Positions 4,768-18,224 are shown, numbered from the stretch's first letter. The stretch is DNA of 32,000 bases from Alkalilimnicola ehrlichii MLHE-1 (GCF_000014785.1 NC_008340.1:1230001-1262000), one strand, 5' to 3'. Notes: a model not told the origin generated them from the sequence alone. Program-made: numbers and translations.

Positions 4768-7700
4768 ATGTCACCTGATGCGCAAGTTCCCCCCGAAGCC
4801 GGTGGCCCACAGGGACGCGATTTTCCCCTGGGTATCGCCGGCTTCCGTTACGCGGATCTCCACAACCCGGCGCAGCTTGCGGAACTGTTGAGCGTTTTCG
4901 ACCAATTCCTGGCGACGGACGATCCGGTATTGTTCGAGGTCTTTCAGCAGTACCGGACGGCCGGGGCGGGGGATCTCTCGGCCACGGAACGCTCGGCGGT
5001 ACTCACCGGGGTGGCCCCGCAAGTGAGCCGTTTTCTGGCCCGCCTCTTTGGGATCGAGAGCGAATGGGGTCGACTCCGGGAACGCGTTCAGCGGGAGTTG
5101 GATACCGTCATGGCCTACCGGGACCAAGTGGTCGCGAAGGTCCGGAAGCGCTTTGCCCCCGAGGATCTAGCCGACTGGGACCTGGAGACCCTGGACCGCG
5201 AGGTCTCTGTGCTCCAAGAGGCATTGTCCGGGAGCGATAACCCAGTCGAAGACCCGGAGCGGGCGCTTGCCGCGAGCGCCATGTCCGTGCTGCAGGCCAT
5301 GGAGACGGGGCACGACCCCGATGGCGTAACGGCCCTTCGGCAGTCACTGGAGGCGCATCCCGATGGCCCCACATTGCTGGCGGAGGCGCTGTCGGAGAGC
5401 ACCCCGCAGGCCTTCTTGGCCGCGCTTCTCAACCGGATAGAACGCTGGACTTTCGCCGCCGTTCAATCCACCGCAATCGGTGCCCAAACGCATGGTTGGA
5501 CGGCGCTGCGGGGACGGGCCAAGACGGACTTTGAGAACCAAGTGCCGTGCGAGCCCGTGGCGCGGGAGGGGTATACGGCGTATCGCACCGACGTGACGCG
5601 AAGGCGGGATGGGTTCGCACTCACTGATCCGGGTCTGCCGCTAAGGCGGATCGTGGACGAGGTGGAGCACTGCCTCTACTGCCACGATCGCGACCGGGAC
5701 TTCTGCTCCAAGGGTATGCGCGCAAAGGCGGGTGGTTTTCGCAACAACCCCTTGGGCACGCCCATGGTGGGCTGTCCGCTGGAGGAGAAGATCTCAGAGG
5801 CGCAATATCTCAAGCACCGGGGCGACAGCCTGGCCGCCCTGGCGGTGGTTATGGTGGACAACCCTATGGTGCCCGGGACCGGCCACCGCATCTGCAAGGA
5901 CTGCGTCACCGCCTGTATCTATCAGAAGGTCGAGCCGGTGGCGATCCCGGAGGTGGAAACGGCCATCCTGCGCGAGGTGCTTGCCCTGCCTTACGGCTTC
6001 GAGATCTACAGCCTGCTCACCCGGTGGAACCCCCTGCACGTCCAGCGCCCCCACATGCTGCCCTACAACGGCAAGAATGTGCTGGTTGCCGGTATGGGGC
6101 CGGCAGGTTACACCCTGGCCCACTACCTGTTGAATGAGGGGTTTGGCGTTGTCGGCATCGATGGCCTGAAGATTGAGCCCCTGCCCGATGAGTTGACTGG
6201 CGTCGCCAGCGGCGTTCCCGCGCCGGTGCGCGATTTCGACACCCTCTACGAGCGACTGGATGAACGGACGGTACTTGGCTTCGGCGGGGTCGCCGAGTAT
6301 GGCATTACCGCTCGCTGGGACAAGAACTTCCTCAAGGTCATCTATCTGACGCTAGCACGACGCCGCGCATTCCGCTGCTTTGGGGGGGTGCGCCTGGGTG
6401 GCACCCTGACGGTGGACGACGCCTGGGCCCTCGGCTTTCATCACATTGCGATCGCCGCCGGGGCCGGCAAGCCGACGGTCATCGGGCTTGAGAACAATCT
6501 GGTGCGCGGCATCCGTCAGGCATCGGACTTTCTGATGGGGCTGCAGCTGACCGGTGCGGCCCAGCGCAACGCCCTGGCCAACATGCAGGTTCGCCTGCCC
6601 GCCGGAGTGGTGGGGGGCGGGCTGACGGCCGTGGATACCACCACGGAGCTCCTCGCCTACTACCCCATCCAGGTGGAGCGAACGTTGGAGCGGTACGAGG
6701 CTGTGGTCAGCCGCTTTGGAGAGGAAGCGGTCCTGGCCGAATATGACGGCGAGGAACGCGAGATCCTTGACGAGTTTCTGGACCATGGCCGCGCCGTCCG
6801 GGCCGAGCGCGCCCGGGCAGAGCAGGCAGGGGAGTGCCCTGACTTCGCGCATCTGCTGTCGGGATGGGGGGGCGTCACGCTCTTCTACCGCAAGGGGTTG
6901 CATGACGCGCCGGCCTATCGGCAGAACCACGACGAGCTGGTCAGGGCCATGGAGGAGGGCCTGATTCTGGCTGATGGTATGGCACCGCAATCGGCCATGG
7001 CAGACGGGCATGGCCACCTGAAGGCCGTTCGTTTTGAGAAGATGCATCAGCAGGAGGATGGCGACTGGGTGGCCGGTGGTGAGACACTCACCTTGCCCCT
7101 TCGGACCCTGGTAGTGGCCGCCGGTACCTCACCCAACGTGGCCTACGAAAGGGAGCACCCGGGCACCTTCGAGCTGGATGGCAAATTCTTCCGTGCCTTC
7201 GAGCCCGGAGAGGACGCCCCACACCTGACGCCGGTGGGCGAGAACCAGCCCACCCCAAAAATTGGTAACCCGGCACCCTTCACCTCCTATGAACATGACG
7301 GCCGCCGCGTGTCCTTCTTCGGCGACAACCATCCCGTTTACGCAGGCAACGTGGTGCGCGCCATGGCCAGCGCCAAGGACGGTTATCCATACATCGTCGA
7401 CCTCTTCCGTCAGGCGCTCGACAGCCTGGACCCGGCCGATCAGCCGCAACGGGATGCGGCCATAAGCCGGTTGCTGGCGCACCTGGATGATCAGCTCCAG
7501 GCACGCGTACAGACGGTGCGGCGGCTGGCACCCAGTATTGTCGAGGTGGTGGCGCGTGCGCCGCTGCAGGCGCGCAACTTCCAGCCCGGGCAGTTCTACC
7601 GGGTACAGAACTACGCGTCGTGCGCCCCGCGGATGAACGGCGTGCCGCTGGTCACCGAGGGGATGGCGCTGACCGGGGCCTGGGTGGATAGGGCGCAGGG

Positions 7701-8481
7701 CCTGGTTTCGGTCATCGTGCTGGAAGTGGGCGCCTCGTCCCGCCTCTGTGCCACTTGGCAACCCGGCGACCCGCTGGTGCTGATGGGACCGACCGGTGCC
7801 CCCACCGAGATACCGGCTGGCGAGACGGTGCTGCTGGCCGGAGGCGGCCTGGGTAACGCCGTGCTCTTCTCCATCGGCCGGGCGTTGCGGGCGGCGGGTA
7901 GCCGGGTGCTTTACTTCGCCGGTTACCGTAACCCCGGCGACATCTATAAGGTTGACGAGATCGAGGCGGCGGCAGACGTAGTCGTCTGGAGTGTTGATCC
8001 CGGTCCCGGGGTGCAACCGGTGGTGGCACGCCGCCCACAGGATCGCAGCGTCGTCGGTAACATTGTGGAGGCAATGACCGCGTATGCCGCTGGTGAGTTA
8101 GGGTCGACTGCAGTGCCCATGGGAGCGGTGGATCGCATCATGGCCATCGGCTCCGATCGCATGATGGCGGCGGTGAAAGCAGCCCGTCGCGGGGCGCTTG
8201 AGCCTTATCTGAAACCTGGCCACGTGGCGCTCGGCTCCATCAACTCGCCGATGCAGTGCATGATGAAAGCGGTCTGTGCCCAGTGCCTGTGCCGGCAGGA
8301 GGATCCGGATAGCGGTGAGGAGCGGTTTGTCTTCAGCTGCTGTGAGCAGGATCAGCCCCTCGATGCCGTGGACTTTGAGCACCTGAACGGACGGCTGCGA
8401 CAGAATTCAGTCCAGGAGAAACTGACCAACCGGTGGCTCGATCTGCTCCTTGCGGAGGCCCCTGACATACCCAGGGTATAA
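4768..8481 (+). CDS. Large multidomain iron-sulfur flavoprotein: about 290-aa unassigned N-terminal region + GltD/NfnB-like domain + PyrK/NfnA-like ferredoxin-reductase-type domain
   Basis: GGGAG RBS 6 nt upstream of the ATG. GltD-type Cys region HCLYCHDRDRDFCSKG...GCPLEEKI...HRICKDCVTACIY. Dinucleotide fold VLVAGMGPAGYTLAHYLLNEGFGVVGIDG, with a second Rossmann-like VVGGGLTAVD. The C-terminal part has FQPGQFYRV, LLAGGGLGNAVLFSIGRAL and the Cys cluster CMMKAVCAQCLC...FSCC, as in PyrK-like 2Fe-2S electron-transfer subunits. Confidence 0.75.
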   Translation: MSPDAQVPPEAGGPQGRDFPLGIAGFRYADLHNPAQLAELLSVFDQFLATDDPVLFEVFQQYRTAGAGDLSATERSAVLTGVAPQVSRFLARLFGIESEWGRLRERVQRELDTVMAYRDQVVAKVRKRFAPEDLADWDLETLDREVSVLQEALSGSDNPVEDPERALAASAMSVLQAMETGHDPDGVTALRQSLEAHPDGPTLLAEALSESTPQAFLAALLNRIERWTFAAVQSTAIGAQTHGWTALRGRAKTDFENQVPCEPVAREGYTAYRTDVTRRRDGFALTDPGLPLRRIVDEVEHCLYCHDRDRDFCSKGMRAKAGGFRNNPLGTPMVGCPLEEKISEAQYLKHRGDSLAALAVVMVDNPMVPGTGHRICKDCVTACIYQKVEPVAIPEVETAILREVLALPYGFEIYSLLTRWNPLHVQRPHMLPYNGKNVLVAGMGPAGYTLAHYLLNEGFGVVGIDGLKIEPLPDELTGVASGVPAPVRDFDTLYERLDERTVLGFGGVAEYGITARWDKNFLKVIYLTLARRRAFRCFGGVRLGGTLTVDDAWALGFHHIAIAAGAGKPTVIGLENNLVRGIRQASDFLMGLQLTGAAQRNALANMQVRLPAGVVGGGLTAVDTTTELLAYYPIQVERTLERYEAVVSRFGEEAVLAEYDGEEREILDEFLDHGRAVRAERARAEQAGECPDFAHLLSGWGGVTLFYRKGLHDAPAYRQNHDELVRAMEEGLILADGMAPQSAMADGHGHLKAVRFEKMHQQEDGDWVAGGETLTLPLRTLVVAAGTSPNVAYEREHPGTFELDGKFFRAFEPGEDAPHLTPVGENQPTPKIGNPAPFTSYEHDGRRVSFFGDNHPVYAGNVVRAMASAKDGYPYIVDLFRQALDSLDPADQPQRDAAISRLLAHLDDQLQARVQTVRRLAPSIVEVVARAPLQARNFQPGQFYRVQNYASCAPRMNGVPLVTEGMALTGAWVDRAQGLVSVIVLEVGASSRLCATWQPGDPLVLMGPTGAPTEIPAGETVLLAGGGLGNAVLFSIGRALRAAGSRVLYFAGYRNPGDIYKVDEIEAAADVVVWSVDPGPGVQPVVARRPQDRSVVGNIVEAMTAYAAGELGSTAVPMGAVDRIMAIGSDRMMAAVKAARRGALEPYLKPGHVALGSINSPMQCMMKAVCAQCLCRQEDPDSGEERFVFSCCEQDQPLDAVDFEHLNGRLRQNSVQEKLTNRWLDLLLAEAPDIPRV

Positions 8482-8784: not shown

Positions 8785-9013
8785 GTCACTGCGAGGAGGC
8801 GAAGCCGAAGTGGCAGTCTACCGCCCTGGATCGCCACGGGCCTTCGGCCCTCGCGATGACGGGGGGAAAGCCTTCGGCCCTGGCAATGACGGGGGTGCCC
8901 CGTTCCTCGTTGATTCGGGCCCGCGCAGCGGGGAGGGGGGCTCGCGATGACGGGGGTGTGCCGTCCTTCGTAGATTCGGGCTCGCGCAGCGGGGGTGGGG
9001 CTCGCAATGAGGA
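8785..9013. repeat. Cluster of GC-rich palindromic (REP-like) elements with degenerate tandem units
   Basis: GTCACTGCGAGG...CCTCGCGATGAC is a long imperfect palindrome. Units GCCTTCGGCCCTCGCGATGACGGGGG (8840-8865) and GCCTTCGGCCCTGGCAATGACGGGGG (8870-8895) match 24/26. Two units of about 58 bp (8896-8956 and 8957-9013) share TTCGGGC(C/T)CGCGCAGCGGGG...GGGGCTCGC(G/A)ATGA. The GGGCC-TTC-GGCCC hairpin cores sit in a noncoding context. Confidence 0.8.
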
Positions 9014-9081: not shown

Positions 9082-9129
9082 TGGCTCCCCGGGACGGGCT
9101 CGAACCGCCGACCCAGTGATTAACAGTCA
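9082..9129 (-). repeat. att direct repeat, copy 1: 48-bp duplicate of the 3-prime part of tRNA-Asn
   Basis: TGGCTCCCCGGGACGGGCTCGAACCGCCGACCCAGTGATTAACAGTCA is identical (48/48) to 18149-18196 inside the intact tRNA. It covers CCA, acceptor 3-prime strand, T arm, variable loop and anticodon loop. Confidence 0.92.
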
Positions 9130-9244
9130 AGCGTTTCTTTCTTTCCCGTCCATTTTTATCACTTGCTCCCTCCCTCCTGGATGCCCGTAAACCCTTGTAC
9201 GGCCTGCATCCAAGGCGTATTATTCTATTCAGGTTAATGCAGTT

Positions 9245-9289
9245 GGGTGCACATCTTGTGACCGCCAGTGTGCACCCAGTTGTGCACCC
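9245..9289. promoter_or_regulatory. Left-arm array of 9-mer TGTGCACCC sites (candidate integrase/excisionase arm-type sites)
   Basis: GGGTGCACA (9245-9253, inverted), then TGTGCACCC at 9269-9277 and 9281-9289 (12-bp spacing). The block ACCGCCAGTGTGCACCCAGTTGTGCACCCA (9261-9290) matches 18061-18090 at 27/30 in the same orientation. Confidence 0.5.
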
Positions 9290-9340
9290 AATCGGCCCAG
9301 TGATTCGGGTTCTGATCTAGTGATTCAGGAGGGCAGGGCG

Positions 9341-10735
9341 ATGGCTCGCAAGGGTATTACGGCCAAGAAACTGGAGGCGCTCCAGGGCAAGCGCCGCAAG
9401 TCGGCCACCAGGGAGTGGGACGGTGACGGTTCAGGGTTCGGGGTGAAGGTGTCGGCAGCCGGGCGGCTGACATTCTTTCAGTTCTACTACTCCCCCGAGG
9501 GCACCACCGATAAAGACGGTAACGACATTACCGGCAAGCGGCGGTTCATGGGGCTGGGTAACTACCCTGAGACAACGCTCGCAGAGGCGCGGGAGAAGGC
9601 GCAGGAGGCGCGAGAGTTGCTAGAGCGGGGCATTGATCCGCAGGAGCACGCCCGAGAGCAGCAGGAGGCGCACAGGCGGGAGAAACGCAAGCGGGCGCAA
9701 CGGGGCACGCTGGCAGGGGTGGCGGCGCTGTACCTGTGGCACATGCGCAAGCGCGGGCGCTCCAGGGAGTACATTACCGCCGTTCGCCGTGGGTTCCACC
9801 GCGACGTGTTCCCGGTGGTGCCCCGTGACACCAAGGCCGGGGACGTGGAGCCGGAGGACGTGCAACTGATCCTGCACCGGCCCCTAAGCCGTGGCGCTGA
9901 CCATACCGCCCGAGTGCTGCGGGCTAACCTGCATCGCGCGTTCAAGTTGGCCATTCAGGCGGATAACGACCCGCGCAACCTGGGCAGTGCCGTTAAGTTC
10001 CGCGTGCGCCACAACCCGGTGGAGGACGTGCCGCTTGAGGTGCACGTTACGCCCGGAGATCGGGAGCTTTCATTTAGCGAGATCGGGCGCGTATGGCGGG
10101 AGGCCGACCACGCGACCCCTTACCCGCAGGATGCGTTGCTGTTGCGCCTGCTGCTGGCGCTGGGCGGCCAGCACATTACCGAGCTGAGGGAAGCACAGTG
10201 GCCCGAGTTCGATTTGCAGGCCGGACAGTGGCACCTGAAAGCCGCCCGGCACAAAAACCGCACCCGCGACCACCTGGTACCAATCAACAGCACCGCCGCC
10301 GAAGTGCTGGAGGAATTGCGGGCGCTGACTGGTGGGCAAGGGTACCTGTTCCCGCAGCTACGCAACGCGCACAAGCCCATGCGAGCCGAGAGGCCGGGCG
10401 CTATCGTTCGCGGTCTGCTGGCGCACCTGGAGGCGCAGGGCGAGCCGATGGAGAAGTTTACGGCCTCAGACTTCCGGCGCACCTGCAAAACGCGGATGCA
10501 CGAGATAGGGATTCCCAAAACCACCACCAACCACCTGCACAACCATGACTTTGGTGGCGTGAGCGCGAAGCACTACGACCGCTACGACTATTGGGGCGAG
10601 AAACAGCGGGCCATGCGGGCATGGGATATTGCGCTGAAAGCCGCCATTGCAGGCGAGCCGGTGCCCGAGGCGCGTTGCCGGGCGGCGCTCCAGTGGGACG
10701 AGAATGGCGGGGCGCGGCTGGAGGTGGTGGGCTAG
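9341..10735 (+). CDS. Tyrosine recombinase, P4-type integrase (N-terminal arm-binding DUF4102-like domain)
   Basis: AGGAGGG RBS 8 nt before the ATG at 9341 (the track start at 9320 is less likely). N-terminus GSGFGVKVSAAGRLTFFQFYYSP...RRFMGLGNYPETTLAEAREKAQEARELLERGIDP matches the P4-integrase arm-domain pattern. The C-terminal catalytic region has DFRRTCKT...LHNH...KHYDRYDY (R, H-x-x-R-like, Tyr). Confidence 0.85.
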   Translation: MARKGITAKKLEALQGKRRKSATREWDGDGSGFGVKVSAAGRLTFFQFYYSPEGTTDKDGNDITGKRRFMGLGNYPETTLAEAREKAQEARELLERGIDPQEHAREQQEAHRREKRKRAQRGTLAGVAALYLWHMRKRGRSREYITAVRRGFHRDVFPVVPRDTKAGDVEPEDVQLILHRPLSRGADHTARVLRANLHRAFKLAIQADNDPRNLGSAVKFRVRHNPVEDVPLEVHVTPGDRELSFSEIGRVWREADHATPYPQDALLLRLLLALGGQHITELREAQWPEFDLQAGQWHLKAARHKNRTRDHLVPINSTAAEVLEELRALTGGQGYLFPQLRNAHKPMRAERPGAIVRGLLAHLEAQGEPMEKFTASDFRRTCKTRMHEIGIPKTTTNHLHNHDFGGVSAKHYDRYDYWGEKQRAMRAWDIALKAAIAGEPVPEARCRAALQWDENGGARLEVVG

Positions 10736-11072
10736 GTCAAAACACAACATCTAGTGGGGGTGTCGCGCTACACCCCTGATATATGGCTAAAATCGGCACT
10801 TGCGCGACCCCCCTCCAGTGCGGTTTAATCAGGTCTGTGCGTGACGGATTGCGCACAAAAAAGCCCGGCCGCTGTTGGAGCAGTGACCGGGCTGGTGGGG
10901 CAAAGCCCCGTTTCTTTCTACCTTTCGTGCTCCACCGTTGGGGGTGGAGTGAGGTCTACCGTTGGAGCGGTAGCCTCATAGGCAGTATAGCCAGAGTTGA
11001 ACACATAGCGCAACACCTGGCCGTATCTTGCCGCCCCCCGCTGGTGGAGCCTCGAACATGAGGTTCTGACCA

Positions 11073-11300
11073 ATGACCGCACAAAACGCGACCGCCTGCC
11101 CTTCCCGCCTGATGAAAAAGCGGGAAGTCATCGACGTTACCGGCCTTTCCGAGTCCACGATCTGGCGACGTGAGCAGGAAGGGCGATTCCCTCCCCGTAT
11201 TCGCCTGGGCCAGCGCATGACCGTCTGGCGTGAGTCGGACGTTCACGAATGGCTTGCCGATCCGGTTGGTTATCAGCAGGCAGGCGGGGAGGGTGCGTAA
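11073..11300 (+). CDS. AlpA-family (prophage CP4-57-type) DNA-binding regulator / excisionase-like protein
   Basis: 75 aa. LMKKREVIDVTGLSESTIWRREQEGRFPPRIRLGQRMTVWRESDVHEWL matches the AlpA/MerR-like winged-HTH pattern. Its stop overlaps the next gene start (TAATG). Confidence 0.75.
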   Translation: MTAQNATACPSRLMKKREVIDVTGLSESTIWRREQEGRFPPRIRLGQRMTVWRESDVHEWLADPVGYQQAGGEGA

Positions 11301-14077
11301 TGCTGACAGAAAAACGAAACCCCGCCGCCGGGGGCGAACCGGCGAACGGGGCGGGCGCACATTGGGATGGCGTGCAACAGAATTATAGCACTGCCGATAG
11401 CACTGCCGATGCCGCCGTTTCACTGTTCACCGCTACGAACCCCTCCCGCCTTTCCAAGCGGTACCATCTGGACCAACAGGGCCAGCTTCTGACCGCCCCC
11501 GGTGGTTCCCTAGTGCGTGGCGAATACCGGCGCATGGAATGCGGGGAGCCGTGGCAACTGGCAACGCTAATTGACGGGTTGCGGCCAGACCAAGCGTTGG
11601 CCTTTGGCGTGGCTAGGGCTGAACGTTCCCCCGTGGCATCCCGCAAGGCCGCAAAAGAAGGGGACATTACCCGCACCCGTGAGCACTTCGATTGGCCCGC
11701 CGCGCCCGGGTGGCTCATGCTCGACTATGACCCTGAGGCGACCGCCAAACCGCTAGACCGGGATGGCCTGTTGTCGGTGCTGCGGGAAGCGTGGCCAGAC
11801 ATCGAGCGTGCCCCGTTGGTGCTGGGTGATAGTGGCAGTTCCCATATCTACCACGCTGATACGGGCGAATGCGTTAAGGGCCGGGGCGGGTTGCGCTGCT
11901 ATGTCCTGGTGGCTGACGCCCGCGACATACCCCGAGCAGGTGAGGTTCTGCATAAGCGCCTATGGCTTGCGGGTCACGGCTTTTACTTGGTGAGCAAGTC
12001 CGGTGCCCTGCTGGAGCGTGGCCCCGTGGATGCCGTGGTGTGGCAGCCCGAGCGCCTGGACTTCGCCGCCGGTGCCGCTTGCATCGCGCCCCTGGAACAA
12101 CGCCGCCCACCGGCAGAGCCGCGCAACAATGACGCCGCGCCCATCGACACCCGCGCAACGCTGCCGGACCTGACAGCCGCAGAGCTGGAGGAACTGGCCG
12201 AGCTGCGCCGACAGGAACGCGAGGCAATGGCGCCAGACCAAGCATTGCAGCGGGAAGAGTGGGTAGAGCAGCGCCTAGACGAAATCCAGCCGAAGGATGT
12301 CGAGGAAGCCCGCGCCCGGCTAACTGATGCGGTGACGAACGGGCGTCTTTACGGTGACTTCGTTTTGCACCACCAAAGCGGCAAGCGCGTGACGGTCGGG
12401 CAAGTGCTGGACGATCCCGACCGCTGGCATGGGCAACGCTTCGCTGATCCGCTGGAACCGGATTACCGGGCGGACAGCCGAATAGCATGGCTGAACCTTC
12501 GCAGTGGTGGCCGCCCCTTCATCTACAGTCATGCCCACGGCGGGGCGCGTTATACGTTGATCCGCGCAAGCGCCACGTTGAAGGCCCAGCCCGGGGAAAT
12601 GCCGCGCATTGTGCGCGAAGCCGACGCCCTTATGGCTGAAGCCGGTGTTGTGTTCCAACGTGGGGGGCAGCTTGTCCGGGTAGTGGAGGACGGTACCCTA
12701 TTCGGGGTGCAACCGCCTTGGTTGCGGACTCACCTGGAGGAAGTAGCCGCATGGCTGAGGTGGGACGGGCGCGCCAAGGATTGGCTACCTGCCGACGCGC
12801 CCGGAGACCTTGCGCCGCGCATCCTGGCCAACCGGGGCGGCTGGAGCGTGCCCGAGCTGACCGGGGTAATTCGCGGGCCGATACTGCGCCCCGATGGCTC
12901 CCTGTTGAACCAGCCCGGCTATGACAAGGCAACCGGCCTGCTGCTGCTAGCAGACCACCCGGACGGCTGGCCAGCCATTCCAGCGCACCCGAGCCGGGAG
13001 CAGGTACGGGCCGCGTTGGCCACCCTTTGGGAGCCTTTCGCGCGCTTCCCTTATGTCGATGACGTGAGCCGAGCGGTTCAACTGGCCGCGTTGCTGACCG
13101 CCGTTCAGCGCCCACTGTTGGAGACCGCGCCCGCCTTCGCCTGGAACGCCTACCGGGCAGGAACGGGCAAGAGCAAGGGCGCGAAGGCTACAGCATGGCT
13201 AGGCGGTTCCGAGCCGGTCGAAAGCCCGTGGTCGGAGCAAGCCGAGGAACAGCGCAAGCGCCTAATGTCCGCGCTGATGGCCGGGCCGTCTAGTCTGCTG
13301 CTAGACAACGTAAGCGGCCCTATGGACTCGGACACGTTATGCGCGGTGTTGACCGCGAGCGAGTTCAGAGACCGCAAGCTAGGCGTATCTGAGGATGTGA
13401 GCGCCCCAACCCGCGTGTTGGTGGCTGCCACGGGTAACAACCTTCGACTAGTGGGCGACCTGTCCCGCCGGGTACTGGTTGCCACCATCGACCACGGAGT
13501 GGAGAACCCGGAGCGCCTGGCCTTCCCCTTTGACCCGGTGGCCCGCGTGCGGGAGCGGTGGTTGCACTACCGCGCCGCCGCCCTAACGGTGCTGCGCGGG
13601 TTTCTCGCTGAGGGCGCCCCAGCCCATGGCCTTGGAACGATGGGCAGCTATGAACAATGGGATGCCCTTATTCGCCAATGCGTGGTCTGGGTCAGGGCCG
13701 AAGGGCTGGCGGGGTTTAGCCTGGCTGACCCTGCCGACGCCGTGGCCCGCAACTACGACAACGACCCGGAAACGCAGAAGCTCCGGGCGCTGGTGGCGGC
13801 ATGGCACGCGCAACACGCCGCCGCGCCCGTGCGGGTCGCCACGCTAATCAGCACAGCCGGGGGCGATGTCGACGGCTGCACCTTCCCGCAATACGACGAA
13901 GGACGGGCGGCGCTGCTGGAGGCCCTGCAAGAGATCGCGGGGGATCGTGGTTATGTGAATCGCCGCCGGTTGGGCCGTTGGATAGAGCGCCACGCCGGGC
14001 GCGTTGTCGATGGCCTGCGCATTGAGAGCGCGGGGGAGGCGTACAAGACCCGGCAATGGCGGGTGGTGCAAGTCTGA
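11300..14077 (+). CDS. Primase/helicase-like replication protein (AEP-like N-terminal motifs + P-loop NTPase)
   Basis: Start ATG at 11300, coupled to the alpA-like stop; the track ORF begins earlier at 11249. N-terminal motifs resemble archaeo-eukaryotic primase signatures: LMLDYDPE (DxD), GDSGSSHIYH (SGxxxH), VDAVVW. The central ILRPDGSLLNQPGYDKATGLLL resembles the D5_N/P4-primase region. P-loop AYRAGTGKSKGA and Walker-B-like SSLLLDNV. The position after int and alpA is as in P4-like/PICI-like elements. Confidence 0.6.
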   Translation: MLTEKRNPAAGGEPANGAGAHWDGVQQNYSTADSTADAAVSLFTATNPSRLSKRYHLDQQGQLLTAPGGSLVRGEYRRMECGEPWQLATLIDGLRPDQALAFGVARAERSPVASRKAAKEGDITRTREHFDWPAAPGWLMLDYDPEATAKPLDRDGLLSVLREAWPDIERAPLVLGDSGSSHIYHADTGECVKGRGGLRCYVLVADARDIPRAGEVLHKRLWLAGHGFYLVSKSGALLERGPVDAVVWQPERLDFAAGAACIAPLEQRRPPAEPRNNDAAPIDTRATLPDLTAAELEELAELRRQEREAMAPDQALQREEWVEQRLDEIQPKDVEEARARLTDAVTNGRLYGDFVLHHQSGKRVTVGQVLDDPDRWHGQRFADPLEPDYRADSRIAWLNLRSGGRPFIYSHAHGGARYTLIRASATLKAQPGEMPRIVREADALMAEAGVVFQRGGQLVRVVEDGTLFGVQPPWLRTHLEEVAAWLRWDGRAKDWLPADAPGDLAPRILANRGGWSVPELTGVIRGPILRPDGSLLNQPGYDKATGLLLLADHPDGWPAIPAHPSREQVRAALATLWEPFARFPYVDDVSRAVQLAALLTAVQRPLLETAPAFAWNAYRAGTGKSKGAKATAWLGGSEPVESPWSEQAEEQRKRLMSALMAGPSSLLLDNVSGPMDSDTLCAVLTASEFRDRKLGVSEDVSAPTRVLVAATGNNLRLVGDLSRRVLVATIDHGVENPERLAFPFDPVARVRERWLHYRAAALTVLRGFLAEGAPAHGLGTMGSYEQWDALIRQCVVWVRAEGLAGFSLADPADAVARNYDNDPETQKLRALVAAWHAQHAAAPVRVATLISTAGGDVDGCTFPQYDEGRAALLEALQEIAGDRGYVNRRRLGRWIERHAGRVVDGLRIESAGEAYKTRQWRVVQV

Positions 14078-14079
14078 GT

Positions 14080-14194
14080 TAGTGGGGGTTTCGGGGGTTT
14101 CTGGGGTTTCTCACAACGATGGGTTCAAAACTGTCAGCGACAGTTCAGACCTATAGAGCGAAACAAACCCCAGAAACCCCACAAACCCCCACTA
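14080..14194. repeat. 30-bp inverted repeat built from three tandem 9-bp GGGGGTTTC iterons per arm (candidate origin of replication)
   Basis: Left arm TAGTGGGGGTTTCGGGGGTTTCTGGGGTTT (14080-14109) pairs with AAACCCCAGAAACCCCACAAACCCCCACTA (14165-14194) at 28/30. The 55-bp spacer is less GC-rich and holds a perfect hairpin AACTGTC-AGC-GACAGTT (14129-14145). The repeat starts 3 bp after the primase-like stop. Confidence 0.8.
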
Positions 14195-14398
14195 GCTACC
14201 GGACCCGAATATAACCTCGCTCAAATCAGGGGCAATTACCCCGGCCTACCCTCCAGCGCCCGCCTTTAAGCCGCCCCTGTGGTGGTGATTGAACCCCGCC
14301 AAGTGATAACTAATCACTCTCGTCAATTCATGTTAATGCAGTTTAATCAATCACTTGTAAAACATTGTCCCGCTAGTACCATAGGGAGTAAGGGTTTT

Positions 14399-14419
14399 AG
14401 GTGCACAAATGGGTGCACA
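14399..14419. promoter_or_regulatory. Two inverted-orientation copies of the 9-mer (AGGTGCACA, GGGTGCACA) upstream of the packaging module
   Basis: 14399-14407 (8/9) and 14411-14419 (9/9), 12-bp spacing, 23 bp upstream of the 14442 ATG and downstream of a possible TTGTAA-N16-TACCAT promoter (14355-14382). Confidence 0.45.
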
Positions 14420-14441
14420 TTAGCGAGAGGTTAGGCGCGAA

Positions 14442-14807
14442 ATGGCGGCCAAGCATCAGGACATTCCAAAGCAATACCGCCCCGGCTGGCTGGAATCGCT
14501 GGACGGTCGTTATGGCCTTGCCCGTGAGCTACGCGCCCGCTTCGATGAAGTCTGTAATGACCTTGGTGGTGCGGATCGCTTGTCTTACATGCAGCGATCC
14601 CTTGTAGAGCGTGGTCTGTGGCTCGAATACTGGCTGGCCCAACAGGAGCAGGCGTTGTCCAAGGGCGGTGACTTCGACGTGGGCAAGTGGGTGCAGGCCG
14701 CTAACAGTCTCCAGGGTATCTACTCCCGCCTTGGTCTGGAGCGCCGTCAACGTGACGTTCCAGACCTTGCGCAATACCTGGCGGCCAAGGCAGGGGAGGC
14801 GGGCTAA
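14442..14807 (+). CDS. Hypothetical protein; putative small terminase subunit by position
   Basis: 121-aa helical protein with high GC3. It lies directly upstream of, and is translationally coupled to (TAATG at 14805-14809), the mini-ORF and TerL. I recognise no diagnostic motif. Confidence 0.45.
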   Translation: MAAKHQDIPKQYRPGWLESLDGRYGLARELRARFDEVCNDLGGADRLSYMQRSLVERGLWLEYWLAQQEQALSKGGDFDVGKWVQAANSLQGIYSRLGLERRQRDVPDLAQYLAAKAGEAG

Positions 14808-15040
14808 TGGTCATCTGTGCCAACTGCCGCCACTACCCCGGTCCCGGCCAGCTATGCGCGGTGGCCAAGCGCCACGCCACGCACCACCGCCGTTCCTGCC
14901 GCTACCACCGGACGGACACCAGCGCCCGCCACGTCGCCACGCTCCGCCGCCTGGCGGTGGATTGGCTCCACCAGGGCGATCACAACCGCTACGCCGTAAC
15001 CCTGGACCTGGCCCACCAGGCACGGGAGGCGATGCGATGA
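14807..15040 (+). CDS. Small Cys4/His-rich protein (possible zinc-ribbon), hypothetical
   Basis: 77 aa, MVICANCRHYPGPGQLCAVAKRHATHHRRSCRYH. Strong G/C third-position bias. Start and stop both overlap the neighbours (TAATG; ATGCGATGA). Confidence 0.45.
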   Translation: MVICANCRHYPGPGQLCAVAKRHATHHRRSCRYHRTDTSARHVATLRRLAVDWLHQGDHNRYAVTLDLAHQAREAMR

Positions 15041-16428
15041 GCGTCACCATCCGCGACGTGATGACCGATCCCGCCCTGTTCGGTGGCCAGTTCGGTGGCG
15101 ACACCTGGGCCGCCTGGCGTGCGCTCCTGAGCGGCTTTTATGGCCTCCCGCTGGACGATGCCGAGGCACAGCACTGGCACGCGCTCACAGACCGCGAGAG
15201 CGCCCCGCAGAGCGCACATGACGAGTTGTGGCTAGTGGTAGGCCGCCGCGGTGGCAAGTCCAATGCAGCGGCCTTGCTGGCGGTCTATGAGGCGTGTTTC
15301 AAAGACCACCGCGATGCCCTGGCACCCGGTGAGGTTGCCACCACCCGCGTCATGGCTGCCGACCGTGCGCAGGCCCGCAGCGTGTTCCGGTATATCTCCG
15401 GTCTGATGCACGCGAATCCGATGCTGGAACGGCTGATCGTGCGCGAGGATCGGGAATCCATAGAGCTGTCCAACCGGGCTGTTATCGAGGTGGGCACGGC
15501 CTCATTCCGCACGACACGCGGCTACACGTTCGCGGCGGTGATTGCCGACGAGGTGGCGTTCTGGCGCTCCGATGACAGCGCGAACCCTGACAGCGAGATC
15601 ATTGCCGCCGTGCGTCCCGGTCTGGCCACGCTGAACGGCAAGCTGATCGCGCTTTCCAGCCCATACGCCCGACGCGGTGAGCTATGGGAAAACTACCGCC
15701 GACACTACGGCAAGGCATCGCCCATCCTGGTGGCGCAGGCTCCCAGCCGCACCATGAATCCCTCATTGCCTGAGCGCGTGGTCACGGAGGCAATGGAGCG
15801 TGACCCGGCCAGTGCGGCGGCGGAGTACCTGGCGGAGTTCAGGACGGACGTGGAGACCTTCCTGCAACGCGAAGTAGTAGAGGCCGCCACGCGGCCCACC
15901 CCGCTGGAGTTGCCCTACAACAAGCGCGTTACCTATACCGCCTTTGTTGATCCGGCAGGTGGTGGCGCGGATGAGTTCACCGCCGCCATCGGCCACCGGG
16001 AAGGGGAGCGCGTGGTCGTGGACGTGCTACGCGCCCGCAAGGGTACGCCTGCCGAGATCGTTGCCGAATACGCCGACCTGCTGAAGTCCTACCGGATCAC
16101 CCGCGCTATCTCGGATCGTTATGCAGGCTCATGGCCTGCCGACGAGTTCAGCCGCCACGGGATCACCGTAGAGCAGGCCGCTAAACCGAAGTCAGACCTT
16201 TATCGGGACATGCTCGCCAGCATGAACAGCGCCCGCGTGGAGCTTCCGCCCGATGATCGGCTGATGACCCAGCTAATCAGCCTGGAGCGCCGCACAGCAC
16301 GCGGTGGCCGGGACAGTATCGACCACGCCCCCGGTGGTCACGATGACAGAGCAAACGCCGTTGCCGGTCTGGTGGCGGCCAACTCACGCGCCCCAGGCGA
16401 ACGGATGCGGGCGCTTTGCACTTGGTAG
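15037..16428 (+). CDS. Phage terminase large subunit
   Basis: The ATG at 15037 overlaps the upstream stop; the track ORF from 14611 has a Pro/Arg-rich, non-protein-like extension. Walker A LVVGRRGGKSNAAALL, Walker B AAVIADEVAFW. The C-terminal RNaseH-like nuclease has acidic residues in FVDPAGGGADEF and GGHDDRANAVAG. Confidence 0.8.
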   Translation: MSVTIRDVMTDPALFGGQFGGDTWAAWRALLSGFYGLPLDDAEAQHWHALTDRESAPQSAHDELWLVVGRRGGKSNAAALLAVYEACFKDHRDALAPGEVATTRVMAADRAQARSVFRYISGLMHANPMLERLIVREDRESIELSNRAVIEVGTASFRTTRGYTFAAVIADEVAFWRSDDSANPDSEIIAAVRPGLATLNGKLIALSSPYARRGELWENYRRHYGKASPILVAQAPSRTMNPSLPERVVTEAMERDPASAAAEYLAEFRTDVETFLQREVVEAATRPTPLELPYNKRVTYTAFVDPAGGGADEFTAAIGHREGERVVVDVLRARKGTPAEIVAEYADLLKSYRITRAISDRYAGSWPADEFSRHGITVEQAAKPKSDLYRDMLASMNSARVELPPDDRLMTQLISLERRTARGGRDSIDHAPGGHDDRANAVAGLVAANSRAPGERMRALCTW

Positions 16429-17593: not shown

Positions 17594-18058
17594 ATGTATG
17601 AGGCGGAGGCGAAGGAGAGGCAGAGGTTGTCCCCTGGGCGGCCAGTCGCGAGCGCCGGAAAAGGTCCGGAAATAATTCCGGATGTTTCTGATGATCAGCC
17701 CATCACCACCAGTCAGAAGGCCGCCATCGCAGCCGAGAAGATGGAGCCGCCCAAGCCGTCCCGCTACGAGCAAGAATCCCGCGCCAAGGCCGCCGCAGAC
17801 TTCGGCACCAATCCGCGCTATGTGTCGGATGCGAAGAGGTGGCGCAGTGCTAGGCCGCATTCTTGCATGTCATGCAAGGGGCATTCCCCCATGCAAGGCG
17901 TGCCAACATTGAAGTTTCCTATCGGTATTGGCGGTAAACGGCGTTTGTCCTATCGACCTGCGCGGGTGGTCTGGCATCCATCCGCAGAGTGGGGCGGGTT
18001 CTGGCGACCCGGTGGCCGACCGCTGGGTAAAGTGCGCTGCACCCAGTTATGCACCTAG
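17594..18058 (+). pseudogene. ParB-like/KorB-like fragment (probable remnant)
   Basis: YEAEAKERQRLSPGRP...GKGPEI...ESRAKAAADFGTNPRYVSDAKRW resembles the region after the ParB N-terminal domain in phage ParB-like nucleases, but no N-terminal domain is present. The track start (TTG at 17555) lies inside the terminator T-tract, and the 3-prime part of the ORF runs through the arm-site repeats. Confidence 0.25.
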
Positions 18059-18089
18059 CAACCGCCAATGTGCACCCACCTGTGCACCC
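18037..18089. promoter_or_regulatory. Right-arm array of 9-mer sites (candidate arm-type recombinase sites)
   Basis: Perfect TGTGCACCC at 18069-18077 and 18081-18089 (12-bp spacing, the same geometry as the left arm), plus degenerate copies CTGCACCC (18037-18044) and TATGCACCT (18048-18056), 12 bp apart. Confidence 0.5.
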
Positions 18090-18103
18090 AGATAACCCCC
18101 AGA

Positions 18104-18147
18104 CAAACAAAAAGGGCCTAAGCGAATCGCCTAGGCCCTTGTTTTGT
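18104..18147 (-). terminator. Rho-independent (bidirectional-looking) terminator supplied by the element to the reconstituted tRNA-Asn
   Basis: Stem AGGGCCTA (18113-18120) / TAGGCCCT (18132-18139) with an 11-nt loop. An A-run lies on one side and TTGTTTTGT on the other. It lies directly 3-prime of the tRNA on the minus strand. Confidence 0.6.
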
Positions 18148-18148
18148 A

Positions 18149-18224
<76 letters not shown>

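Follow-up and report, generated by a model that had tools for sequence, protein, structure and literature searches.

The stretch of 32,000 nucleotides of Alkalilimnicola ehrlichii MLHE-1 analysed here (NC_008340.1:1230001-1262000, referred to as the window) contains a 9.07-kb island integrated in a tRNA-Asn gene, and we describe an inverted repeat that directly follows the primase-helicase gene of this island and that a first-pass annotation of the window had proposed as a candidate origin of replication. The island lies between 48-bp direct repeats. The tRNA-Asn(GTT) gene is on the minus strand (18149-18224), its 3' part (18149-18196) forming the right attachment site, attR, while attL (9082-9129) is a displaced copy of this 3' part (a 53-nt repeat with 96% identity to 18144-18196). 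From left to right, all on the plus strand, we find a tyrosine integrase gene (int, 9320-10735; Pfam Arm-DNA-bind_3, Phage_int_M and Phage_integrase), an open reading frame (ORF) of 92 codons (orf92, 10783-11061), a regulator gene of the alpA family (11073-11300; Pfam Phage_AlpA, E 8e-17) and, directly downstream of the latter, the gene of a 925-aa primase-helicase (11300-14077), a putative initiator assigned from a PHROG match and its predicted fold. The inverted repeat, hereafter the dyad, occupies 14078-14197. It is followed by an intergenic region of roughly 245 bp and lower GC content (about 14198-14441), by orf121 (14442-14807, plus strand, 121 aa), by the gene of a 605-aa terminase-large-subunit-like protein (TerL; 14611-16428, plus strand; phrog_2, E 1e-22) and, from 16640, by ORFs without assigned function. 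All large ORFs of the island, from int through orf265, are on the plus strand, and protein-family searches of the island returned no gene for a capsid, a tail or lysis. Its size, set against roughly 10-15 kb for such elements, its specific attachment site, integrase, alpA gene, one-way transcription and lack of structural and lysis genes are those of an island of the phage-inducible chromosomal island (PICI) type. Its TerL-like gene is atypical in this respect: PICI-like satellites usually carry terS, whereas the island has neither terS nor capsid-remodelling genes.

The dyad spans 120 bp and consists of three units, a spacer of lower GC content and three inverted units. As the stop codon of the primase-helicase gene ends at 14077, position 14078 is effectively the first base beyond the gene, and the inverted repeat sets in 3 nt past the stop. 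The left arm (14080-14110, plus strand) is made of the flank TAGT(G) followed by three tandem 9-bp units, GGGGGTTTC at 14084-14092 and again at 14093-14101, then TGGGGTTTC at 14102-14110, the unit type being GGGGTTTC and the period 9 bp. The right arm (14165-14197, minus strand) holds the inverted units, with AAACCCC at 14165, 14174 and 14183, and then the flank CACTAGCT. Taken as 33 nt (14077-14109 and 14165-14197) the arms are 91% complementary, and their core (14080-14109 and 14165-14194) is complementary at 28 of 30 positions across an inter-arm distance of 55 nt. The spacer (14111-14164), which we propose as the melting region, has a GC content of about 0.47 against 0.64 for the window, bears the motifs GAAAA...TGTCA-N-GACA...TATAG, and contains at the exact centre of the dyad a palindrome, AACTGTC-AGC-GACAGTT (14129-14145), with perfect 7-bp arms. 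The first-pass annotation had described the three tandem units, the mirrored 30-bp arm and the hairpin in the spacer, and all of these are present as it had them.

This structure is far above chance level. The dyad is the top-scoring inverted repeat of the 10-kb island region, with a score of 24, when a score of at least 18 is reached in 0.27% of 1483 background windows (340 nt each, drawn from related loci). The unit GGGGTTTC occurs 7 times in the window for 1.4 expected, a count reached in none of 100 shuffles. As single-stranded DNA, a stretch of 136 nt has a folding energy of -39.4 kcal/mol (z = -8.1), and the sense RNA of the repeat one of -78.7 kcal/mol (z = -10.9); a scan of the window with Rfam returned tRNA only.

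To place the dyad among its relatives, we compared related loci from reference genomes (2), metagenomes (80) and viral contigs (4), with several obtained via exact-protein look-up, and scanned the region behind the primase gene in the 75 loci having sequence there for inverted repeats with a loop of 30-120 nt and a score of at least 12. Such a repeat is found in 49 of the 75 loci, compared with 1.3% of the 1483 background windows, and a rescan of whole loci with re-assigned gene ends adds about 9 more. About 58 of the 75 loci thus have an iteron-built inverted repeat, and homologous elements devoid of one, which the first-pass annotation had regarded as fatal to its proposal, are not the rule. 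Across dozens of relatives, the layout is conserved and the sequence is not. In 38 distinct relatives, the inverted repeat follows the primase stop after a median of 6 nt, the gap being no longer than 20 nt in 33 of them. Counted from the stop, the first bases of the units are at about +7, +16 and +25 and those of the inverted units at about +88, +97 and +106, again with a 9-bp period. The relatives have 3+3 units in arrays about 81 bp apart, for a median total span of 110 bp, and in several lineages the stop codon TGA falls inside the first unit. In all 38 relatives the central 50 nt are below the GC content of the locus (0.42 vs 0.54, p = 7e-12).

More than 10 unit sequences are found among the lineages. 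The unit of the window, GGGGTTTC, is shared with an Oceanicaulis locus (L001); the others are GGTGGGAGT in Halorhodospira abdelmalekii (L002), GAGGGTTTG in L003-L006, GGGGGATAC in L009, TGCAGTTAG in L010, ATCGGAGTT in L012, GGGATATGT in L014-L018, GTGAGTTAT in L023-L026, GGTGGGTTT in L040, TGCAGGAGT in L080 and TGTGAGTTT in Spiribacter (L091). Unlike the units, the core of the spacer is conserved across lineages, in the form ...GAAAA-TGTCA-N-TGACA-nTTT...TATAG.... The motif TGnCA-N(0-4)-TGACA is present at the midpoint of the inverted repeat in 19 of 38 loci, vs 12 of 4591 background windows, and its offset from the dyad centre in those 19 loci is mostly within one base (mean -0.9, sd 2.6); CTGTCAGCGACAG in the window is a variant of this central TGTCA-N-TGACA motif. 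A sigma-70 promoter in the spacer was considered and rejected, with TGACA and TATAG only about 9 nt apart. Mirror-image units resemble each other somewhat more than non-mirror units do (7.34 vs 6.65 of 9 positions, p = 4e-5). The element therefore combines iteration with two-fold symmetry. This would fit a symmetric protein assembly as well as a DNA cruciform, so that the mirror test does not tell binding by such an assembly from a cruciform or hairpin.

The unit sequence goes with the primase. In L001, where the primase is 82% identical to that of the window and the downstream genes are different, the unit is that of the window. The orf121/TerL module is present in only 4 of about 80 related loci, namely the window, L005, L013 and Spiribacter vilamensis (L091), and the two last-named show the opposite arrangement: in L091 the primase has 65% identity, orf121 75% and TerL 72%, and in L013 the primase has 44% and TerL 63%, and the units are TGTGAGTTT and GGGATTA, respectively. 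The other loci have different downstream genes, and most of them keep a dyad after the primase. Covariation of iterons and primase in related islands, which had been suggested as a check on the first-pass proposal, is indeed what we observe, with a constant geometry, lineage-specific units, a repeat that remains behind the primase where another downstream module is found, and one of altered sequence where the module of the window is retained (L091 and L013). It is therefore the primase, and not the terminase-like module downstream, that the repeat and its unit sequence follow. In the protein, the C-terminal helix and wing also vary in parallel with the unit class, their sequence being NRRRLGRWIERHAGR with GGGTTT-type units, NGRYFAGWLRRHKGR with GGGAT-type units and NSRAIAAFMRRNKGR with TGCAGTTA units.

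The association extends to plasmids. A tblastn search identified a homolog (32% identity, 95% coverage) on the Psychrobacter plasmid pA32H2, a circular molecule of 6547 bp with four annotated coding sequences, no recognised replicon type and no annotated terminase. The homolog is followed on its 3' side by a hairpin with a T-run, three copies of GGTAGGGA, about 90 bp of AT-rich DNA and three inverted copies of CCCTACC, and a second plasmid, pA17P3, has a related arrangement. A literature search on the Psychrobacter plasmids pA32H2 and pA17P3 found nothing. Plasmid pA32H2 gives indirect but meaningful support to the view that gene plus dyad constitute a replicon.

The 925-aa protein is predicted to comprise a primase-polymerase domain of the archaeo-eukaryotic primase (AEP) type, a D5-type helicase domain of superfamily 3 (SF3) with the Walker A motif GSGKT, and a C-terminal helix-helix-beta-hairpin. 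It matches the PHROG family "DNA primase" phrog_16593 (E 4e-57) and has more than 565 homologs, nearly all unnamed. Sequence searches against Pfam, NCBIfam and the PDB, also with a 25-member profile, gave no match, and structure prediction was therefore used. An AlphaFold2 model built from 114 homologs (predicted local distance difference test score, pLDDT, 92.9; predicted template-modelling score, pTM, 0.88) matched in Foldseek the PrimPol of African swine fever virus (E 2e-10), mpox (MPXV) E5, the C-terminal region of the phage NrS-1 protein, and the Pri-Rep of the Staphylococcus aureus pathogenicity island (SaPI) SaPI5 (7ola, E 1.6e-6) as well as PriRep1 on double-stranded DNA (7pds, E 2.4e-6), with low global TM-scores of 0.2-0.3, as one expects of proteins whose several domains are mobile. 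By this model, the protein shares its fold class with the SaPI initiators of the Pri-Rep type. Among the residues invariant in the family are those of the Walker A motif (GSGKT) and those of a DYD motif located in the N-terminal domain. The last roughly 60 residues, modelled as helix, helix and beta-hairpin with a pLDDT of about 97, would resemble a winged helix. The top weak matches of the C-terminal part (E of at least 0.5) are winged-helix domains (BLM RQC, Orc1/Cdc6 and PadR/LmrR); these matches are non-significant, and the winged-helix assignment thus rests on topology.

The dyad at 14078-14197 is, in our view, most likely the vegetative replication origin of this 9-kb integrated satellite-like island, and would be recognised in cis by the primase-helicase encoded directly upstream; the comparative evidence supports here what the first-pass annotation had put forward. 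The closest precedent is that of the PICIs. Their origins lie directly 3' of pri-rep, with two iteron sets around an AT-rich region, Gram-negative PICIs have the layout int-alpA-pri/rep-ori with a single direction of transcription, and plasmid maintenance in an Escherichia coli PICI needed both pri and ori (PMC6092414), while the C-terminal winged-helix domain of SaPI Rep binds the opposed iterons (PMC9371898). The dyad shares with the origins of SaPIbov1, SaPI1 and EcCICFT073 its position directly 3' of the initiator gene, its two opposed sets of short iterons flanking an AT-richer centre, and an iteron sequence specific to the element, the units here following the primase lineage. The initiator described there, a self-loading helicase fused or paired with a primase and ending in a winged helix, has its counterpart here in the predicted fold similarity to 7ola and 7pds, and the order int-alpA-pri/rep-ori of the Gram-negative PICIs recurs in the island, again with a single reading direction.

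There are also differences. The island's protein family is unrelated in sequence to the PICI and SaPI initiators, its units are of 9 bp against 5-6 bp in those systems, and the strict 3+3 count, the 9-bp phasing and the near-perfect dyad symmetry of the whole element set it apart. The central TGTCA-N-TGACA palindrome, present family-wide here, is not found in the descriptions of PICI origins contained in the excerpts of PMC6092414 and PMC9371898. Of the analogies drawn by the first-pass annotation, that with the PICI origin holds (PMC6092414, PMC9371898), whereas that with ori and crr of P4 fails because the island has no second iteron cluster. Given its match to the published PICI and SaPI organisation, we file the element under the PICI-type origin design, to which the central TGTCA-N-TGACA dyad is an added feature.

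Other origins offer partial likenesses. The alpha protein of the satellite P4 combines a primase, an SF3 helicase and a C-terminal origin-binding part that recognises short repeated octamers, and the island resembles P4 as a satellite element with a multifunctional primase/SF3-helicase protein. P4, however, requires two separated iteron clusters, ori and crr, and its primase is not of the AEP type, whereas the island has a single compact dyad and an AEP-type primase. The classical iteron plasmids (RK2, R6K, pPS10, F and P1) likewise place replicon-specific repeated initiator sites beside an easily melted region. Their iterons are, however, direct repeats of 17-22 bp on one side of the DNA unwinding element, accompanied by DnaA boxes, and their Rep proteins have no helicase or primase activity; here, the units are of 9 bp and inverted, and the initiator has helicase and primase domains. 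No DnaA box was found in or near the dyad, the sole match in the window, with 1 mismatch, being at 7383-7391. In SV40 and the papillomaviruses, inverted sets of short sites on either side of a central region direct the head-to-head loading of two SF3 hexamers of large T antigen and E1, respectively, a likeness of mechanism only, since these are eukaryotic viruses with other origin-binding domains and without a primase fusion. Finally, the Sulfolobus plasmid pRN1, which encodes ORF904, has a dyad of roughly 100 bp just past its own primpol/SF3/winged-helix gene, and a similar stem-loop occurs in the Bordetella phage BIP-1. This 100-bp stem-loop is required for replication, with a 21-nt stem, whose symmetry is needed, and a 58-nt loop, which is needed as well, and its relatives show a conserved structure with low sequence conservation (PMC4234260). 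The system differs in belonging to an archaeal plasmid and in its stem, which is not described as tandem iterons (PMC4234260).

From the observed structure of the dyad, its conserved position and geometry, its linkage to the primase and the fold class of the protein, we infer a mechanism of binding, melting, priming and assembly, including its stoichiometry. After excision of the island, the C-terminal winged-helix-like domain would bind the 9-bp units, three per side and facing each other, and two helicase assemblies would be loaded mirror-wise, flanking the 55-bp lower-GC spacer. The spacer would then melt, starting from the palindrome conserved at its centre; primers would be made by the AEP primase-polymerase domain at the N-terminus, and the host polymerase would continue from there. 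The unit sequence would serve as a lineage-specific address, while the core of the spacer would be common to the whole family. Cruciform extrusion of the dyad may have a role, as it may in pRN1 (PMC4234260).

Several points weigh against an origin at this place. The support for it is comparative throughout, and the spacer is only moderately AT-rich (GC 0.47) in a high-GC host. About 15 distant relatives, with 38-42% identity, have no clear inverted repeat, and several relatives have units of flipped polarity or a displaced inverted repeat. On the protein side, the isolated C-terminal 184 aa gave nothing significant in Foldseek (best E 0.5), which leaves this part a candidate DNA-binding module. 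Common ancestry confounds the covariation of protein and unit. As many loci pair the primase with an alpA-like gene, co-occurrence alone does not tell which protein binds the units.

The variants themselves are of several kinds. In L058, L070, L076, L079 and L081, all distant (38-42% identity), the C-rich strand of the unit comes first, that is, the polarity is flipped, and L081 has three arms. In Halorhodospira halophila SL1 (L089, 10140-10250) a degenerate dyad lies about 460 bp downstream of the primase stop; the element adjoins a cluster of type I restriction-modification and abortive infection genes, and no integrase was called within 7 kb upstream. Decay of this element would account for the degenerate and displaced dyad and is a possibility. 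A small ORF separates the primase stop from the displaced dyad in L090. The unit itself, taken out of this context, is a poor guide: a scan of IMG/VR for an exact triple of GGGGTTTC returned 16 contigs, all unrelated, with no primase homolog and no inverted partner, in which the triple belongs to coding tandem repeats or to one-sided arrays. The triple by itself is not diagnostic.

The presence of alpA-like genes alongside the primase brings up a first alternative, in which the repeat is a binding array without a part in replication, be it an operator bound by AlpA or by some other regulator, a partition site resembling a centromere, or a site of incompatibility or copy control. Solitary unit-like sites near the start of the primase operon could likewise indicate regulation. 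One of them, TAGTGGGGGTgTC (10752-10764, plus strand), lies between int and orf92 and matches 14080-14092 at 12 of 13 bases; the decamer CTAGTGGGGG recurs here at 10751-10760, as the first-pass annotation had noticed, and the match proves to be longer. The 9-mer of this site is expected 0.2 times per window, and the site could have an auxiliary or regulatory role or be due to chance. The other, a solitary GGGGTTTC unit, is on the minus strand at 11316-11323, in codons 6-8 of the primase gene, and L003-L006 have a match to their own iteron at the equivalent position; both sites could be autoregulatory, or again fortuitous. A binding array of this kind is nevertheless improbable: protein-family searches found no partition genes in the island, the array is at the end of the operon and not at its promoter, and opposed arrays with a lower-GC centre 3' of a helicase-primase gene are the published layout of an origin, for which, in an E. 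coli PICI, pri plus ori were sufficient (PMC6092414).

Elsewhere in the island, there is no second iteron cluster; lone matches occur only at 10752 (of the TAGTGGGGG type), 11316 and 17508. Over 38 loci, matches to the locus's own unit outside the origin number 83 vs 54 in the control, a slight excess that is unclustered apart from L040. This metagenomic locus has a second complete 3+3 dyad of GGTGGGTTT units, at about +931 to +1045 from the primase stop, or some 930 bp past the first.

The great stability of the sense RNA and the position of the repeat, exactly at the 3' end of a gene and between two co-oriented modules, could point instead to an RNA or transcriptional barrier, that is, a 3' hairpin terminating or insulating the primase operon or stabilising the primase mRNA, and the slightly greater likeness of mirror units is what a stem requires. 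An intrinsic (rho-independent) terminator consists of a short GC-rich stem with a loop of 3-8 nt, followed by a T-run. The 30-bp stem and 55-nt loop of the dyad are unlike this; the stem is followed by CACTAGCTACCGG and not by a T-run, and no intrinsic terminator was called in 13800-14800. Moreover, L002, L013, L016 and both plasmids have a distinct terminator of canonical type ahead of the units. The arms also do not behave as those of an RNA stem: 18% of arm positions are mismatched, and of 189 mismatches 21 (11%) would be G:U pairs in the sense RNA and 127 (67%) are transversions, which is the random expectation, a test that weighs solely against a sense-RNA stem. Nor would a stem need tandem repeats in its arms or a conserved unpaired centre. 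The terminator or insulator that the first-pass annotation had kept as its alternative is disfavoured by the missing T-run and by arm mismatches that do not preserve RNA pairing, and we regard an RNA function of any of these kinds as distinctly unlikely.

A packaging function (pac or cos), with the products of orf121 and the TerL-like gene acting on the repeat, is very unlikely, even if these two genes start about 250 bp downstream and satellites carry packaging signals of their own. The scarcity of the orf121/TerL module among loci that mostly have the repeat, the unit that differs in L091 and L013 where TerL is better conserved than the primase, and the occurrence of the repeat on pA32H2, with no annotated terminase, all speak against it, and a unit that follows the primase rather than the packaging genes disposes of the idea. 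As for a miniature inverted-repeat transposable element or a genome-wide repeat of the repetitive extragenic palindromic type that landed here by chance, the terminal inverted repeats of about 30 bp and the length of about 120 bp would suit it, but a single copy within the 32-kb window, a position fixed with respect to the homologous gene across more than 50 lineages, each with its own repeat sequence, and no evident target-site duplication make its probability negligible.

The assignment of a replication origin would give a function to a conspicuous non-coding structure and, by association, to a large family of "hypothetical" proteins that has no Pfam domain and counts more than 565 homologs. 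The PICI-type origin design would thereby reach the Ectothiorhodospiraceae, many lineages from the environment and small plasmids, without overturning current understanding. Of most interest among the by-products are the dyad conserved at the centre of the element and the protein/unit pairs that occur in nature. These natural variants, with a fixed geometry, differing units and matching C-terminal changes, are convenient for studying how origins are read by self-loading primase-helicases, and the same set is useful for the question of how satellites avoid cross-talk. One might also speculate, tentatively and with more doubt than confidence, that we are dealing with the first case to be recognised of a widespread replicon cassette, a protein of roughly 900 aa with AEP-primase and D5-helicase parts and no Pfam family plus a 3+3 dyad, distributed over tRNA-integrated satellites and small plasmids of many Proteobacteria. 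In such a cassette, melting or priming would actually take place at the central TGTCA-N-TGACA, recognised by a conserved portion of the protein, and the 9-bp units would be no more than interchangeable address labels against cross-activation between co-resident elements. If this were true, the dozens of natural protein/unit pairs would already spell out how a new origin-binding domain recognises its sites. The signature to search for is a primase stop, three 9-bp units, about 55 bp of lower GC content with a central TGTCA/TGACA dyad, and three inverted 9-bp units.

A few repeats outside the dyad were also observed. In the intergenic region behind it, 14323-14343 and 14397-14425 share motifs with the att-proximal ends of the island (9224-9291 and 18038-18090). 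Upstream of orf121/TerL, TCaATTCAtGTTAATGCAGTT has 90% identity to 9224-9244, and the box pair GTGCACCCA-nn-TGTGCACC is an inverted copy of 9263-9291 that is met again near attR. By their sequence, these motifs common to the orf121/TerL upstream region and the att ends may be binding sites for the arm domain of the integrase or for a regulator. To the left of the island, an ORF of 1237 aa (4768-8481) has only a weak, sub-threshold match to Pyr_redox_2, and just beyond attL, at 8840-9000 of the window, there are tandem-like repeats of about 60 nt (CTGGCAATGACGGGGGTGCCCCGTTCCTCG..., 83% identity) together with three copies of GCCTTCGGCCCTCGCGATGACGGGGG.

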